Shown piece after piece: positions 23,645 through 61,950 of a DNA stretch of 64,000 nucleotides. How positions within the stretch are numbered: position 1 is the stretch's first letter; the number at the start of each line of letters is the position of its first letter. The DNA comes from a virus (taxonomy: Duplodnaviria > Heunggongvirae > Uroviricota > Caudoviricetes): IMG/VR virus record IMGVR_UViG_3300045988_138358, one strand, 5' to 3'. A program made the translations under genes and the position numbers. Under the pieces are notes generated by a model, which was not told the DNA's origin, did no database searches, and saw only the letters and a list, made by a program, of their open reading frames with translations.

Positions 23645-23669
23645 AAAAAGCCCCAGGCGGGGCTTTTTC
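23645..23669. terminator. bidirectional intrinsic terminator between the parA-RHH pair and dam
   Basis: GC hairpin flanked by A-run and T-run. Confidence 0.6.
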
Positions 23670-24577
23670 TATTTGAGCGTTGCAATGATATCGTTAGCGA
23701 CTATTCGCGTGGATGCTTTGCATGACACGGACCGTCTGGCTGGCATGTGGTACAGCTTAAAACCGTTTCTTTCGTACAATTCGCGAATTTTTGGCGCGCC
23801 ACTGTTTGTTATTACTATCTTTGCACCGCGCTGGTGGGCCGCCACCAACAGTGATACAAGCCGTTTTTGTTCATCGAAAAGGAAGCTATTTCCTGAATAG
23901 CTGGTAAATCCCTCTGTATCTGGCAGCGGCTCATACGGCGGATCACAAAAAATCACATCGTCTTCACCAGCCGCCTCGATGACACCAGCAAAGTCACCTG
24001 ATACAAAGGAAGTGTTTTTGAGTACGTCATCAGCCAAAAATGCCTTCATCTCTGCATGTGGGAAGTAGGGCGCTTTGTATTTGCCATACCCCACGTTGAA
24101 CTCGCCATTTTGGTTGTACCGCGTTACGCCATTAAAACAGTGACGATTAAGGTACAAAAATGCGGCAGCATGATGTAGTTGGTCATACTTTCCTCTGTTA
24201 AATGCCTCACGCACTTCGAGGTAAGCGTCAGCGTTGTTGTAATTTTTGAAAAAACTATATGACAGCGTGACGAGCGAATGTCCTTCTCGCTGCAATGTCT
24301 GATAGAAGTTAATCAGGTCACCGTTAATATCATTAAGCAGGTTGTGGCGAAATCCTGCATTCGTAAATACGGAACCGCCACCAACGAATGGTTCTATTAA
24401 CCGCTTACCGTGTGGTAGATGCTCAAGCACTGTAGGCAATTCTGAGAATTTACCACCTACCCATTTGAATATCGGACGCTCATATTCATCCGGAGTCCGA
24501 ATGGTGCGCATATAGCTAATTTCAGCCATCGTATCCTGTTTTTCTATGGCTATGCTTGCTATAGATTTACTCATAGA
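23669..24577 (-). CDS. dam: DNA adenine methyltransferase (Dam family)
   Basis: ORF track 23669-24670; FKWVGGK and DPPY motifs; ATG at 24577 (MSKS..) has AAGGGGG upstream, the track N-terminal extension is probably not translated. Confidence 0.8.
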   Translation of the reverse strand, partial: SMSKSIASIAIEKQDTMAEISYMRTIRTPDEYERPIFKWVGGKFSELPTVLEHLPHGKRLIEPFVGGGSVFTNAGFRHNLLNDINGDLINFYQTLQREGHSLVTLSYSFFKNYNNADAYLEVREAFNRGKYDQLHHAAAFLYLNRHCFNGVTRYNQNGEFNVGYGKYKAPYFPHAEMKAFLADDVLKNTSFVSGDFAGVIEAAGEDDVIFCDPPYEPLPDTEGFTSYSGNSFLFDEQKRLVSLLVAAHQRGAKIVITNSGAPKIRELYERNGFKLYHMPARRSVSCKASTRIVANDIIATLK

Positions 24578-25319
24578 GCACCCCCTTATTCGCTTCGAAA
24601 ACTGCCTTTGCGAATCCATGTGGAGTAGCACTTCGAAAATTAGCCCTGTCAGGCCCTGGTGGCGCGGCATGGATTCTGTTATCTGGCTTGCCTAATGATT
24701 CGTCCATTAGGGCATCAGGCATGACAAAGCCCTGGCCGCTCCAGAGGCATGTTTTTTTTGTGTAGTTATCTTCCTGACAATATGCAGTGAAGAAGTAAGG
24801 GTGAAAGATGTGATCTGGCTTACGCCAGAATGTCGATATTTTGCTGACCGGATTTTCAATCATGTACGGACAACCGATCATCTTTGCAATGTCATAACAC
24901 TGCCAGACAACCTGCATTGCTTTGAACTGGAAAACCGGATCTTTATTAGCCTTGTCCGAAAACCAGCGCGCGCCGGAAACAGCCAGGTCAGTACACGGTG
25001 GGAACCCGGCCAGAAACACGATGCGCTGCAAATTCTTACGGAGAAAAGCGTATACTTCATCGCTATCGATGATCGCACTAATACGCGTCAGAACGGCACC
25101 TGATTGCATCCGCTCGTCACTGGTCGATAAGTGCTGTGGATCGACGATAGCGGCATCGACACCGTATTCCAGCCAGGGGGCAACCATTGCCCCCGTAAAA
25201 TCACAAAGACTCACAACAAGCTGTCGGTTATTATCGTTCTGCTTCACCGCCAATGGCCTCCACCAGCGCGTTAAACAGTGCAGATAATTCGCCCGTAAAG
25301 AGCACGAAATCAGCATCAA
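24567..25319 (-). CDS. C5-cytosine methyltransferase-like protein, short
   Basis: ORF track 250 aa; motif IV-like GFPPC and ENP; too short for a complete C5 enzyme; overlaps dam start. Confidence 0.4.
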
Positions 25320-53516: not shown

Positions 53517-55025
53517 TCAAATATCCAGATCTGGCATTTCTACATCTGCAAGAACCTGATCGCGGAAGGTAGCCATTTCAGCGCCGATATCTTCATTAGC
53601 AGGAACATAGTCCACCAGCATTGTAAAGCAGTAGGTATCCCATCGGTCAGGTGATTTGATGTTCAGCTTTTGCCGCATGTGCTCCTTGCGCATCATCGCC
53701 ATCTTCCCTTCTTCATTAAGTAAAAAGGGGATTTTTGACGCTTGCTCTGCCGTTTTAGGGTCGCTGTCTATTCGCATACGACCTGACTTTATGGCATCAC
53801 GAGCCATAATATTTGCGTAGGCACGCTGGTTAACAAAACGCTCCTTGTCTTTGTTCGAAAACATGGGTTTCCCCCACCGAATCCGTACCGGATTAGCCCC
53901 ACGGCGCACCAGCTGCGCACAGGTATCTGAACCAAAACCGTCTGCGTCAACCGCGATTGTAATATTCGGGTATTTATCCGGCGTGCATTCGTTGTATATA
54001 AAGTCAGCAAAAGCCAGCGGGTCCATAGTCCCTGGCATTTCCATTACCTTAAAGTTAACAACACGCCGCTTTTCCCGGTGACCAGACACTTTACAGATAT
54101 TAAGAACTGACTTGTCTCGCCCGTTACCAACGTCAGCAGTAGCCACCCATCCCCAGTTTTTCTCCAACAACACCTTGCGCCGCGCAGCGCGATCGCATTC
54201 ATCACGACCAAGCAAATAGCCGTTAATCTCCCGAGGAAACTGACCAAGAACCTTGACCATGTACTCAATAGAATCGCGCCCGCCATATTCTAGGAGTTTC
54301 TGCCTGATGAATTGTGGTGTGACGAACGGTGATTCTTCTGAGTTAAGAACAATTGCTGTCCAGATCCCTTTCGGGTTGTCTGGGGTTTTAGCTTGAGAAT
54401 GGTGCGAATCGTAGAAATAACCACTTGGCCTTGTTGGCTGGGATAGCATCAACATTCGGTTATCTTCTTCAGTCAGAGCGCCAGTCATTACGCCGATCGC
54501 TTTATCAGATATACCTGATGCTTCATCCAGAATTAGAAGCAAATGTGCCGCGTGCTCCCCCGCCAGAGCTTCTTCGTTACCGAGTCGATAGCCTTTGCAG
54601 AGAACTTCCCAGATCCCCTTTCGAGAGCGTTCATAAAACATGGTGTCAGACAGGACAAAATAGGTCTGTAACCACCCATGACGCTTAACGGCATTCGCCC
54701 AATACTGTTTAACGTATTTGAATACACCTGTCTTAACCTGACCTATTTTGTTAGCAACAATGATGACACGGGCATCGGGGAACAGAATCAAATAAATCAG
54801 CAACAACATAGCCGTTAGCGACGATTTCCCTGTACCGTGACCAGAGGTAACAGTGGTTCTGCTCCCTTTTTGCTGTACGGACTGGATAATCTCCTGCTGC
54901 TGGTGGGAGGGAAACATCCCGAATATATCAACAACAGCCTGGGTAAAGTTGTAGCGGTATTTGATTACCATATCGCGCCAGCGTGGATCGCTGGTGACGC
55001 ATTTAATCTTGCGCCCACCAGCCAT
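53517..55025 (-). CDS. terminase large subunit (PacB-like)
   Basis: ORF track 502 aa; intact Walker A SGHGTGKS and Walker B ILDEAS; start overlaps upstream stop (TAATG). Confidence 0.8.
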   Translation of the reverse strand: MAGGRKIKCVTSDPRWRDMVIKYRYNFTQAVVDIFGMFPSHQQQEIIQSVQQKGSRTTVTSGHGTGKSSLTAMLLLIYLILFPDARVIIVANKIGQVKTGVFKYVKQYWANAVKRHGWLQTYFVLSDTMFYERSRKGIWEVLCKGYRLGNEEALAGEHAAHLLLILDEASGISDKAIGVMTGALTEEDNRMLMLSQPTRPSGYFYDSHHSQAKTPDNPKGIWTAIVLNSEESPFVTPQFIRQKLLEYGGRDSIEYMVKVLGQFPREINGYLLGRDECDRAARRKVLLEKNWGWVATADVGNGRDKSVLNICKVSGHREKRRVVNFKVMEMPGTMDPLAFADFIYNECTPDKYPNITIAVDADGFGSDTCAQLVRRGANPVRIRWGKPMFSNKDKERFVNQRAYANIMARDAIKSGRMRIDSDPKTAEQASKIPFLLNEEGKMAMMRKEHMRQKLNIKSPDRWDTYCFTMLVDYVPANEDIGAEMATFRDQVLADVEMPDLDI

Positions 55026-56389
55026 TAGTCATCCTCCGGCGGTTCTATCGCAATATCATCATCTCCGGCGTCATACCCTGCATCTGATGCATCATAATCA
55101 CCGTAAATTTCAGCCGTTGCCGAAGGGTCAATGTCCAACTCTTCATCGTTGGCCTCGAATTCCCCAGCCTTACGCTCGCCATTGTGGTCGTAATCTCCGC
55201 ACCCCAGATCTTCAACAATGGTTGCCACATCCGCCCGGCGCTCTGCCAGCCATTGCGGATGGTTAGCCTGAAGCGATGCAAACTCCTTCGCTTCTTTGTC
55301 CAGCTGTTCATCATCAACATCATTGATGTCAGAAACTGGAGGTTCGAGAAGAGTGATAGCTTTCGCCGCGCGCGCCGCGAGGATAGCCGGGACACTGACA
55401 CCCTGACGCTCGATGTATTCAGCAACACCGATATCGTCCAGCTCCTCGCGCTCACGCATACGTATAGCGGCGGCGATAACTCTGGCTGCGCGTGCGTCAG
55501 CGCCAATGCGATATTCAATCTCTTTGCCACGCTGTTCGGCCTGTAGGCGTGCTAATTCGAGTTTTTCTCTGGCCTCGGCCTCTCTGAATGCTTGCTGGCG
55601 AGCACCCTGACGAAGTTTTTCATCACCCTGTCGCAGCTTTTGTTCGGACTGATATATCGCTGCCAACCTACTGATAAAATCGTTCATGTAGTAGGCCGCG
55701 TCACTGATTAGACCGAGAAGTCGCTGCCCAGGGTGCATTCCTTCTGGCTGTTCATCACCCAGGGCGTCTATCTCCGCCTGTAGGCGTTCGGCCTCCTGAT
55801 CAACAATGCTTTGGTACTGAAGTGCGCGTTCTTGCGCCATTTGAATTGCTAACCGCAGGTGCTCTTCTGCGCCGTTCTTCATCATGTCGCGAGCCACACT
55901 CGTAGTGGGCAACGTGGCACGCTGCACAGCACCGCCAGGGATCATTGCTGAAGATCCCTCGATTTTTGAGGCGCATTTATCTTCGGTGGGGATCATTTTC
56001 GCCATTTTTTCGCGCAATGATCTCCTGACAGATTCTTTTATCTCATTGTTATTATTTGCATTATTTTCATGATCCGAAGTTTTCTTTCTCGGCATACTTC
56101 GGAAAGAACCTGTGCCCTGCGAATTGTCAATTTCTGTAAATTTTGTTGTTTCTGTACCCTCTTCTGGTCTTTTTTTTGCTCTTCCTGCCCGTTTTTTTTG
56201 AGGTGATTTGGTGCTTTTTTTTGTAGTCTTCACCTGCGACCGCACCTCATTTTTTTTCATATTGAGATGCTTTCTGGCGGTATTGAAGCTAAGGTCGTGT
56301 TGCTCGCAGTATTCCTTTACGGTGATCCCTTTTTCTTCACGCAACGCTATAAATTTGGCGCGGTGCTCTTCCCAATTAACCAGACTCAT
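55025..56389 (-). CDS. terminase small subunit-like (PacA-like) protein
   Basis: ORF track 454 aa; N-terminal HTH-like segment, acidic C-terminus, coupled to the large subunit gene. Confidence 0.5.
   Translation of the reverse strand: MSLVNWEEHRAKFIALREEKGITVKEYCEQHDLSFNTARKHLNMKKNEVRSQVKTTKKSTKSPQKKRAGRAKKRPEEGTETTKFTEIDNSQGTGSFRSMPRKKTSDHENNANNNNEIKESVRRSLREKMAKMIPTEDKCASKIEGSSAMIPGGAVQRATLPTTSVARDMMKNGAEEHLRLAIQMAQERALQYQSIVDQEAERLQAEIDALGDEQPEGMHPGQRLLGLISDAAYYMNDFISRLAAIYQSEQKLRQGDEKLRQGARQQAFREAEAREKLELARLQAEQRGKEIEYRIGADARAARVIAAAIRMREREELDDIGVAEYIERQGVSVPAILAARAAKAITLLEPPVSDINDVDDEQLDKEAKEFASLQANHPQWLAERRADVATIVEDLGCGDYDHNGERKAGEFEANDEELDIDPSATAEIYGDYDASDAGYDAGDDDIAIEPPEDD
55940..56075. 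other. GATC hexamer cluster inside the PacA-like gene (candidate pac site)
   Basis: Five GATC within ~135 bp as GGATCA, AGATCC, GGATCA, TGATCT, TGATCC. Confidence 0.35.
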
Positions 56390-56778
56390 AAAGCAACACC
56401 ACGCTTTTTAACGGCGGCATTCCACAGCTTATTCGCCATGTCCACCAGCTCTCGTTGCTCTTTTCGCGCCTGTTCGACTGATTTCCTGCTACAGTTTTTA
56501 ACCAGTAAGCTACCGTATTCAGGGGTGCGCCCGCGCACCTTGAACTGATATCCGTTCAGGCCATGCAACCAGTATTTCCGTGGGTAAACACGATCATCAA
56601 GCTCACAAATAGCTCGGCTTGACCGCACAAAATGCCGAATGATGTTGGTTACACTTACTCGTGAAACATGAAGGTGAGGATATTTTTCTTTAGCTAGAGT
56701 GGTGATTTCGGTGACTGTCAGATAGCAGTCAGCCCTAATCATGATATCCGCAATTTCTGCGCTGCTGATATGCTCCAT
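56386..56778 (-). CDS. hypothetical protein
   Basis: ORF track 130 aa; overlaps the PacA-like start; operator-like site upstream. Confidence 0.3.
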   Translation of the reverse strand: MEHISSAEIADIMIRADCYLTVTEITTLAKEKYPHLHVSRVSVTNIIRHFVRSSRAICELDDRVYPRKYWLHGLNGYQFKVRGRTPEYGSLLVKNCSRKSVEQARKEQRELVDMANKLWNAAVKKRGVAL

Positions 56779-56856
56779 TAATCCCCCAGGCAGGAAATGA
56801 CCGAGGGGATGATAATGAGAATGTTATTTCTGTATAGACTGGCAAAAAGTTGGTTA

Positions 56857-56886
56857 TATTAGAAAATTAATTCCATTCATCTAACA
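56857..56886. promoter_or_regulatory. operator-like inverted repeat TATTAGA-N16-TCTAACA
   Basis: Between the 56887 gene stop and the 56778 gene start. Confidence 0.5.
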
Positions 56887-57279
56887 CTACCAGCGAGATA
56901 AGCGAACGACGTGTTTTACCTTAGCGATCCACTTACCACGTGAGTTATTAATTACGGCCTGCGCCACCTTTAAGCTGACTTCAAAATCAGCCTTACGACC
57001 ATCAGAATCCACCAGCGTTGCACCGTCTATTTCCGGCAGGCTTAAATAATCCTGTTCTACCTCTAATGGCATTGACGGCTCTCTGAATGGTGTCAATTGC
57101 CGAGCTTTCCAGATAAAGCGAACTCTCAATCCCCTATAAGCCATTACCATGTAGCCTGTTATCGTGCTCTTATGGCCTGCATCAGTACGCGCAGCATTAC
57201 ACGATACAATCTTACAGGTGACGATATTCCACTCCACGTTGGAGACTTCGTGAATGCTTAATTTTGTTGTCTCGTACAT
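56887..57279 (-). CDS. hypothetical protein
   Basis: ORF track 130 aa. Confidence 0.3.
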   Translation of the reverse strand: MYETTKLSIHEVSNVEWNIVTCKIVSCNAARTDAGHKSTITGYMVMAYRGLRVRFIWKARQLTPFREPSMPLEVEQDYLSLPEIDGATLVDSDGRKADFEVSLKVAQAVINNSRGKWIAKVKHVVRLSRW

Positions 57280-57854
57280 CAGAATGCCTCCCAGTCAGTT
57301 GCGATAATATCCACGCCAGTTGCGAACCAGTCTGTCTGCGCCTGTAAATCCCCATTCATCATTACCAGGCGAGGCATAACCATCACATCGCACCCTTCCA
57401 CAATATCGAATGCCTCTTCCGGCAAGAATTCGAAGAGCTTTTCTTTGCTGCCAATGCTGCCACGGAACATCGATAAATAGCTCCCTTTAGGCCATGATGC
57501 CCGGCGGGCATCCAGCCCCTTCATCATCCAGAACATGGCGGCAGAAAAATTGATGTTCTTTTTGGCGATGAAAACATTATTGGCTTCTGTTTGCTTCAGA
57601 AACTTAATTAGCCTTGCCATCGACTCGGATAACGCTACGTATGGCTCATGATTGGCTGCGGACACGCTCACACCATGTAATCCAACACTGACTACCGTCA
57701 TATCGCCGCTTTGAGCGGTTTCAATGTTGACACCTTTGCGAACTAACGAGGCATAAAGTTCCTCTCGCTTTTGTGTCCAGCGTTCCCGCTGACCGATGAA
57801 GTCACTCAATATGAGGTCTGCTTCTGCATACGCGTTATCGTTCGCCGTTAACAT
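57279..57854 (-). CDS. fusion protein with C-terminal DUF2829-like (Tad2-like) domain, more divergent
   Basis: ORF track 191 aa; C-terminal half (AAMFWMMKGLDARRASWPKG .. PRLVMMNGDLQAQTDWFATGVDIIATDWEAF) follows the same pattern. Confidence 0.4.
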   Translation of the reverse strand: MLTANDNAYAEADLILSDFIGQRERWTQKREELYASLVRKGVNIETAQSGDMTVVSVGLHGVSVSAANHEPYVALSESMARLIKFLKQTEANNVFIAKKNINFSAAMFWMMKGLDARRASWPKGSYLSMFRGSIGSKEKLFEFLPEEAFDIVEGCDVMVMPRLVMMNGDLQAQTDWFATGVDIIATDWEAF

Positions 57855-60741: not shown

Positions 60742-61950
60742 TTATTTCCCATAAAGATCTTCTACGCCCCCATTCTTCTTGTCCCATTCGTTAGCCCACA
60801 CCCGGCAGGCATCAATAATTTCTTGACGACGGTCGCCCTGCATAAAGGGGATGCTTTCATGAAAACTACTTGGGATACAGGCCACGCTGAATACGGTATC
60901 AAACGCAGTCTGTTTGATAGCTTCCAACGTCTCTGGGCGCATTTTCAATTCATCGATCGGCGCATCCTTAGAGTCCATAATCCGGCGATGCAGGCGCGGG
61001 AAATCAGTCTCCAGGTACGCCATAATTTTATCTGCCAGGCATTCGTCTATATCGGTATTCCAGTCCGTTTCGAAGCCGGGCAGGCGATAGTAAAGCGGCG
61101 TTCCCCATACTGATGGGATCACATCCATCGTCAGCAGGCGGTTGGTTCTAATTTGTTGATGGTAATTAGCCGTCAACAGAGCTTCACCACGCTGACCAGT
61201 CTCCGCAACCAGACCATGCGGGTACTCATGGATATAGGCAATAGCATCCACCCCGTCATACATGAGCGGGAATGTCTCTGGCCTTTGTCCCATACCACAA
61301 GCGCGGTTCAGATCATGACCAAGCTGTGAGCACTCTCGTTTCAGCGTTTCAATAATGTTCTGCGCTGCTGCTAACTTTTTACGCAGTGTGACGCCTTCGC
61401 CTTGATACTTAATGCATTGCTGATTCAGCTCTGTTAAACGCTCTTTTAGTTCCCGACGCTCTCTTTTCAGCGCACGGTTATCCTTCTCCGCAACATCCAG
61501 TCGTTTTGACAGACTGGCTGGATAGTCTTTTTTGTAACGACTCAAATCGGCTTCTGCGGATTTGCGCAGTGTGTTTGCCTGTTCAAGACGCGCTTCCAGA
61601 TTGCCGATCTCACTACGCATATTCGCGGCAAATTGATTAACAGCATTGCCAAGACTTTCAACTGTCGCTGATACGCCTGTGACTTGTGAAAAACGGATCA
61701 AGCCATCATTAACGGCTTGTTGATATTCCTCAAACTGATCCACCAGCTTGTTGTAATCAACCGTCCCTTCCTCAAGTAGCTGGTTGATCTCCGCGACCAG
61801 GTTATCAGTAGTGGCAATGACGCTCTCATGTAGCCGTCTAGACAGGTCATCCCCCGGATTCCGCTTTTGAATAAGGGCGATCTGTGTCCGCAGCGTTTCA
61901 ATCGCGGCTGAGATGATTTCCAGATTAGAAGTATCAGTTTGTTGACTCAT
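60742..61950 (-). CDS. hypothetical protein, N-terminal coiled coil plus C-terminal globular domain
   Basis: ORF track 60742-61962; the second ATG at 61950 has a better RBS. Confidence 0.4.
   Translation of the reverse strand: MSQQTDTSNLEIISAAIETLRTQIALIQKRNPGDDLSRRLHESVIATTDNLVAEINQLLEEGTVDYNKLVDQFEEYQQAVNDGLIRFSQVTGVSATVESLGNAVNQFAANMRSEIGNLEARLEQANTLRKSAEADLSRYKKDYPASLSKRLDVAEKDNRALKRERRELKERLTELNQQCIKYQGEGVTLRKKLAAAQNIIETLKRECSQLGHDLNRACGMGQRPETFPLMYDGVDAIAYIHEYPHGLVAETGQRGEALLTANYHQQIRTNRLLTMDVIPSVWGTPLYYRLPGFETDWNTDIDECLADKIMAYLETDFPRLHRRIMDSKDAPIDELKMRPETLEAIKQTAFDTVFSVACIPSSFHESIPFMQGDRRQEIIDACRVWANEWDKKNGGVEDLYGK

Follow-up and report, generated by a model that had tools for sequence, protein, structure and literature searches.

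The five GATC sites that lie close together in the pacA gene of the phage-plasmid sequence analysed here are probably copies of a 9-bp recognition element, the D6 counterpart of the P1 TGATCA/G hexamers, and would form the pacB-proximal arm (HEX3 side) of a pac site. The DNA analysed (hereafter the window) is a single stretch of 64,000 nucleotides, and positions are given in window numbering unless gene numbering (pacA nt) is indicated. As judged from the sequence, the case for the cluster being more than a chance grouping rests on its location and conservation, not on its density. Binding by PacA, dependence on methylation, the position of the cut, and the direction of packaging are predicted by analogy.

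Gene and genomic context

The source element is a D6-like phage-plasmid of the P1 family, and its pacA gene was 94% identical to that of phage D6 at the nucleotide level. The gene (55025..56389, minus strand) is a 1365-nt ORF coding for 454 aa. PacA is the subunit of the P1-type pacase that recognises DNA, and its gene holds the candidate pac site. Used as a query, the protein matched 141 plasmid records, was 100% identical over 427 aligned residues to the pacA product of E. coli plasmid pLD93-1-90kb, and shared 21% aa identity with P1 PacA in a pairwise comparison (E 2e-9); no family was matched in a Pfam search. The upstream neighbour of pacA was lpa (PF25716, E 1.4e-56) and the downstream neighbour was pacB (53517..55025, minus strand), coding for the large terminase, the nuclease-ATPase subunit. 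The PacB product was 56% identical to P1 PacB at the amino acid level (488 residues) and matched Terminase_6N with an E value of 1.5e-4 and 21.9 bits, just under the 22-bit cut-off of Pfam. The order lpa-pacA-pacB-c1-lox/rox is common to the family of this element (D6) and P1. As in a P1-type pac region, cognate PacA and PacB are encoded at the site itself, judging by their identities to the P1 proteins and the shared lpa-pacA-pacB-c1 synteny.

Four A7-A8 homopolymer runs were seen in the lysine-rich linker coding region of the gene (56170-56260, pacA nt ~130-220). In several public D6-like plasmids, pacA was split by length changes of 1-5 nt somewhere in the gene (lengths 1364 and 1360; tblastn matches in 2-3 pieces), which could be sequencing errors or real slippage. 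Two genes upstream of pacA, a 191-aa ORF (57279-57854, minus strand) carried a Tad2-like (Thoeris anti-defence 2) domain (PF11195, E 1.5e-9), and its homologues are named 'MW1434 family type I TA system toxin' in RefSeq.

Position and density of the GATC sites

An earlier note on this DNA had described five GATC hexamers within ~135 bp in the N-terminal third of a PacA-like gene, and the description proved accurate. The sites were found at 55940, 55953, 55991, 56019, and 56071, i.e., five within 135 bp, which in gene numbering are pacA nt 447, 434, 396, 368, and 316 (codons 106-150). The cluster occupies nt 314-453 of 1365, where the first third of the gene comes to an end. The gene-strand hexamers around the five sites are GGATCA, AGATCA, TGATCC, GGATCT, and TGATCC, and the spacings between the elements are 52, 28, 38, and 13 bp.

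The interval 55940-56071 was the tightest cluster of three, four, and five GATC sites in the 64-kb window. An equally tight five-site cluster was obtained in 33/300 third-order Markov simulations and in 962/5000 uniform placements over 64 kb, and the cluster was therefore not significant in the window-wide density test (p 0.11-0.19). Density was dropped as evidence because a comparable cluster appears in 11-19% of random 64-kb sequences. Across the window, GATC was not enriched (218 observed vs 238 expected). The second-tightest cluster (61606-61879, five sites in 273 bp) was placed in a pmgS-like gene by offset from the D6 map.

The repeated 9-bp element

The GATC sites belong to the 9-mer GGGATCATT (reverse complement AATGATCCC), which has the core GGATCA. 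The copies are designated a to e in the direction of the gene. Element e (55938..55946, plus strand; GATC at 55940) is an exact GGGATCATT and is read on the gene strand as AATGATCCC within the codons A-M-I-P. Element d (55950..55958, minus strand; GATC at 55953) has the sequence GGGATCTTC, matches the 9-mer at 7/9 positions, and is GGGATCATT in relatives; d and e form an inverted pair with a 3-bp spacer. Element c (55989..55997, plus strand; GATC at 55991) is the other exact copy, read as AATGATCCC on the gene strand within K-M-I-P. Element b (56016..56024, minus strand; GATC at 56019) is GAGATCATT, an 8/9 match, and makes an inverted pair with c, the GATC centres being 28 bp apart. This spacing recurs in three of the four alignable deeper lineages (L053/L131, L127, and L128). 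Element a (56068..56076, minus strand; GATC at 56071) is CGGATCATG, a 7/9 match, and covers the codons S-D-H. In relatives, both inverted pairs (b/c and d/e) have perfect arms of 9-10 bp, as read from an alignment. A terminator-like hairpin overlapping element c was also returned by a scan of 55700-56900; it lies on the antisense strand and was not considered meaningful.

Two exact copies of the 9-mer were counted in the 64-kb window and two in the 91-kb D6 genome, in both cases within this cluster only. When up to one mismatch was allowed, the neighbourhood contained only the two exact copies (e and c) and one copy with a single mismatch (b). The same 9-mer is translated in three ways: as G-D-H in the left arm of locus L053, as G-S-F/L, and, from the other strand, as M-I-P. 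Protein constraint does not readily account for one sequence that encodes three different peptides and is used in either orientation.

Conservation of the sites

D6-type pacA genes were gathered from plasmids, IMG/VR, and metagenomes, and all were collinear. All five GATC sites were present in 39 of the 41 D6-subclade sequences (26/28 unique sequences and 13/13 further metagenome loci), and the two exceptions were single GATC-to-GACC changes. The sites lie in a hypervariable part of the gene: between the three main lineages, PacA codons 51-160 share 38-40% identity at the protein and ~60% at the DNA level, and the rest of the protein 84-87%. Within gene nt 151-480, only 32-40 of the 327 tetramer positions were invariant, and all five GATC sites were among them (hypergeometric p for 5/5 invariant GATC tetramers 7e-6 to 2e-5). 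Third-codon positions inside the GATCs were invariant in 7/7 cases vs 34% of the other third positions.

The comparison was extended to an alignment of pacA from eight lineages (PacA identity from 100% down to 41%; 400 nt compared), in which just six invariant runs of at least 4 nt were found: TTACA at gene nt 251-255, TGACA at 261-265, AACA at 340-343, GATCAT at 368-373, GATCC at 396-400, and GATC at 447-450. Three of the five sites (nt 368, 396, and 447) are ancient, since they are invariant across the eight lineages; the other two (nt 316 and 434) are confined to the D6 subclade. Element e was found in 41/41 D6-subclade sequences, and its GATC was retained in all eight lineages down to 41% aa identity. 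Element c kept GATCC in the eight lineages, with a single loss in L037 (GACC), and element b kept GATCAT, with a single loss in L026, while the amino acids encoded there changed from RRSL to KGSF or RGSF. At the D6-subclade-specific element d, the amino acids vary (EGSS, KGSL, or QRSS) and the GATC is kept. Element a is invariant in the D6 subclade and absent from the deeper lineages. Taken from these alignments, the cluster is under selection at the DNA level and very probably a functional DNA element; part of the conservation, e.g., that of the repeated M-I-P, could be at the protein level.

Deeper relatives, island, and possible distal element

Deeper lineages, with PacA identities of 67, 55, 54, 47, 41, and 34%, were collected by protein search, contig look-ups, and IMG/VR locus L053. 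These relatives (K. variicola, E. kobei, and JGI and Logan contigs) have a left arm, an island, and a right arm. The left arm consists of 2-3 GGGATC elements at approximately nt 157-215, the island is located at approximately nt 255-280, and the right arm has 3-5 elements at approximately nt 370-476. In the subclade of the window, the left arm is absent from the ancestral position, where the alignment has deletions. Because the deeper relatives are two-armed and this subclade is without the left arm, the cluster would correspond to the right arm, and the site would have to act one-armed or together with a distant element, which is a point against the pac reading.

The conserved island (56123..56145, minus strand; CAAAATTTACAGAAATTGACAAT, of the form TTACA-N5-TGACA) is situated between the arms in the deeper lineages and is a candidate for the centre or the cut region. 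Its TTACA and TGACA are invariant in the eight lineages down to 41% PacA identity, with third codon positions kept and amino acids varying. The centre of the site is likely to be this island, which lies outside the interval 55940-56075 proposed in the earlier note. That the cluster is the pac site was upheld in part: it lies in the same linker as the mapped P1 pac, bears the marks of DNA-level selection, and is accompanied by a Dam-family gene, but it makes up only one arm, and the likely centre is elsewhere. In most lineages, the reverse complement of the island contains TTGTCAGT, the 8-mer cut in P1 pac (L003 3804-3811). This match is in the opposite orientation relative to P1, is 7/8 in the window, has a shuffle p of ~0.05, and is not common to the Citrobacter or Leclercia lineages; it was set aside as evidence and kept as a lead only.

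A possible distal element, GGGATCACC (56321..56329, minus strand; gene nt 61-69), was found upstream in the gene over the codons G-I-T. These amino acids are kept as protein in many lineages, and only the D6 subclade uses GGG ATC ACN, which creates GGGATCACC. The sequence is invariant in the D6 subclade, and other lineages encode G-I-T without GATC. The pattern is suggestive, and GGGATCACC could be a recruited distal left element.

Contig ends

Public IMG/VR, genome, and metagenome contigs were inspected for a recurrent break in pacA that would mark a physical DNA end, and none was found. One isolate-derived contig, L035 (IMGVR_UViG_2537562191_000021), starts at pacA nt 320, directly past the first GATC; this anecdotal case could reflect either an accident of assembly or a true DNA terminus. 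Pile-ups of partial proteins in the protein database were rejected as an end marker, the shorter entries being alternative start calls or short contigs and thus uninformative.

Methylation

The window encodes a Dam-family N6-adenine DNA methyltransferase (23669..24670, minus strand; PF02086, E 1.2e-55). The product matched E. coli Dam (2g1p) with an E value of 1.6e-58 and DpnM (2dpm) with 1e-43, and its homologue in D6 bears the annotation 'similar to P1 gene dmt'. By homology, the element thus has its own Dam-type enzyme, for which GATC specificity is predicted. The gene overlaps a second ORF of 250 aa without a Pfam match (the two spanning 23669-25319, minus strand), and the homologous neighbour in D6 is annotated as a second DNA methyltransferase. 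In P1 pac, the Dam site is part of the hexamers; binding takes place at the hemimethylated site, and cleavage is promoted when methylation proceeds further (PMC10028697). By analogy, a D6-type pac site would probably be Dam-sensitive.

The elements might also be the recognition site of the pacase with cleavage not controlled by methylation, GATC then being a core inherited from a P1-like ancestor. We regard this as unlikely. Conservation extends beyond GATC (GGGATCAT[T]), so that, taken alone, it does not point to Dam. With distances of 13, 28, 38, and 52 bp between them, the elements also do not resemble the tight arrays of P1 (7-15 bp) or Pantoea (12 bp). The invariant core is, however, exactly GATC in all lineages examined, whereas the flanks drift (A/G before and A/C/T after it), which fits methylation sensing without proving it. 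The Dam-family gene is also kept both in this element and in D6, and cleavage of P1 pac was reported to depend on adenine methylation (PMC10028697).

Regulation or coding constraint as possible alternatives

Less likely still is a regulatory role at the DNA level apart from packaging, i.e., a SeqA- or Dam-sensitive site for pacA/pacB expression or for replication timing, or the site of another regulator. DNA-level conservation indicates a function and not which one, and the inverted pairs would suit a dimeric regulator. Nevertheless, a promoter scan of 55700-56900 gave no promoter-like (sigma-70-like) site within the cluster, the position matches that of the mapped P1 pac in a homologous gene, and the two arms of the deeper relatives copy the architecture of P1 pac. 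The 9-mer is, moreover, found nowhere else in the D6 genome, which would be unusual for a set of operators.

It is very improbable that the cluster has no DNA-level function and is a chance concentration held in place by coding constraint on D-H, G-S, and M-I-P: the window-wide density (p just 0.11-0.19) and the conservation of M-I-P and D-H as amino acids in the D6 subclade would agree with this, but no synonymous position within the GATCs varies, compared with 66% of the other third positions, amino acids beside the GATCs are exchanged with the GATC staying (RRSL/KGSF/RGSF; EGSS/KGSL/QRSS), the same 9-mer is translated in three ways and from either strand, and the GATCs are still there at 41% protein identity, where the rest of the stretch can hardly be aligned.

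Proposed function

As the pacB-proximal arm of a pac site, the cluster would operate as follows, by analogy with P1. PacA together with PacB would bind the elements after adenine methylation by either the host Dam or the Dam-family enzyme of the element, and the bound DNA would be bent or looped. PacB would then cut nearby, most likely at the TTACA-N5-TGACA island (56123-56145), 50-70 bp upstream in the gene, or alternatively in the AT-rich stretch that separates the first two elements, and headful packaging would run towards pacB, c1, and rox. Un- or hemimethylated copies would be left uncut, which would confine cleavage to late infection.

A more specific history is offered tentatively and may well not hold. 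The D6 subclade could have rebuilt a P1-type pac site, with TGATCA/G replaced by GGGATCATT along with a strongly diverged PacA, the left arm lost, and new elements acquired at nt 316 and 434 and, by a choice among synonymous codons, at nt 61-69 in the part of the gene that encodes the conserved N-terminus. Such a site would act one-armed or by looping over ~390 bp, and the methylation-gated packaging specificities of D6-type and P1-type phage-plasmids would be orthogonal to each other.

Novelty and implications

No description of a D6-type pac site was found in the literature searched, the reach of which did not include the D6 genome paper (Gilcrease and Casjens 2018), where a different pac location may be reported. 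In the D6 records of GenBank and RefSeq, no pac site is annotated. A pac site in pacA is expected of a P1 relative, and the general picture is unchanged in this respect; the repeat unit and the layout differ from those of P1, and the cluster appears to make up a single arm.

D6-like phage-plasmids are frequently found in E. coli, Salmonella, and Shigella, and transduction by them and by P1-like elements spreads resistance genes. If the proposal is true, a defined D6-type pac element of ~200 bp would allow D6-based phagemid and transduction tools orthogonal to those of P1, and would help to predict where generalized transduction starts. The P1, Pantoea-type, K. variicola-type, and D6-type sites would likewise make up a natural series for the co-evolution of a terminase subunit with a methylation-gated site, in which the DNA site is embedded within the coding sequence of its own recognition subunit.

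Comparison with known pac sites

A pac site within or beside the small terminase gene, combined with headful packaging, is a feature of P22 (gene 3), Sf6, and the SPP1 region as well. The pac sites of P22, Sf6, and SPP1 do not consist of GATC arrays, and the small terminases of these phages have no relationship to PacA. To our knowledge, none of these three sites is under methylation control.

P1 pac (161-162 bp inside pacA) is composed of seven TGATCA/G hexamers (4+3), an IHF site, and central staggered cuts, according to the P1 annotation and the literature (PMC10028697). In P1 gene numbering, HEX4 is at nt 195-234, the IHF site at 256-268, the cuts at 276-285, and HEX3 at 325-353. As in P1, the candidate site lies inside the linker-coding 5' part of pacA, after the conserved N-terminal domain (nt 314-453 of 1365 here, hexamers at nt 195-353 of 1194 in P1). 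Multiple GATC-centred repeats, a homologous pacase, the same gene order, and an own Dam-family methylase are also shared. The protein alignment pairs the S-D-H codons of element a with S-D-D-H of P1 HEX3 and places the island no more than a few codons away from the position of the P1 cuts.

The likeness ends at the repeat unit and its arrangement. None of the five sites is a TGATCA or TGATCG (0/5), the GATC core alone being common and the consensus unit being GGGATCATT. Unlike the tight 4+3 arrays of P1 around a ~90-bp centre, the five copies are dispersed, partly as inverted pairs, and the largest GATC-free gap within the cluster is 48 bp. The island is unlike the P1 centre, save for the 7-8 nt that match the P1 cut sequence in inverted orientation. 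The IHF consensus WATCAANNNNTTR had no match with up to one mismatch in 55900-56160, and the annotated P1 IHF site itself, as we read it, fits this consensus poorly. Between elements a and b, the stretch TAACAATGAGATA (56039..56051, minus strand) is identical to the P1 IHF site AAACAAAGAGTTA at 10/13 positions, and its AACA is invariant in the eight lineages; this resemblance was seen by eye, was not significant by hand estimate, and is off the IHF consensus, and TAACAATGAGATA is a weak lead only to an IHF-site counterpart. The organisation of P1 pac, which the cluster had been said to echo, is not reproduced in this form: the 4+3 layout around a ~90-bp centre is missing, and the repeated 9-mer is different and partly inverted.

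Repeats centred on GATC were likewise seen in the hypervariable pacA linker of other P1-like phage-plasmids (Pantoea, Leclercia, Citrobacter, and E. kobei, besides the K. variicola and E. kobei elements of the D6 superclade), in the form of TGATC arrays in Pantoea, Leclercia, Citrobacter, and an E. kobei lineage outside that superclade, and neither annotation nor experimental mapping of the pacA GATC arrays of these relatives was found. In Pantoea agglomerans plasmid pPA-MXU-90, seven TGATCA hexamers were observed at pacA nt 154-242 (L009 1654-1742), the first six with an exact 12-bp period. The array encodes a D-H-rich peptide, two more hexamers follow ~125 bp downstream, and the whole resembles an unannotated pac site of the P1 type, laid out as 7+2. 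Closer to the window, the D6-superclade relatives (K. variicola and E. kobei) have the same GGGATC(A/T)T element, sites homologous to nt 368, 396, and 447, and the island. The elements of both groups are two-armed (e.g., 7+2 with 12-bp periodicity in Pantoea, 2+4 around the island in K. variicola), whereas the subclade of the window has lost the left arm and gained sites at nt 316 and 434 and GGGATCACC at nt 61-69 via synonymous codons.
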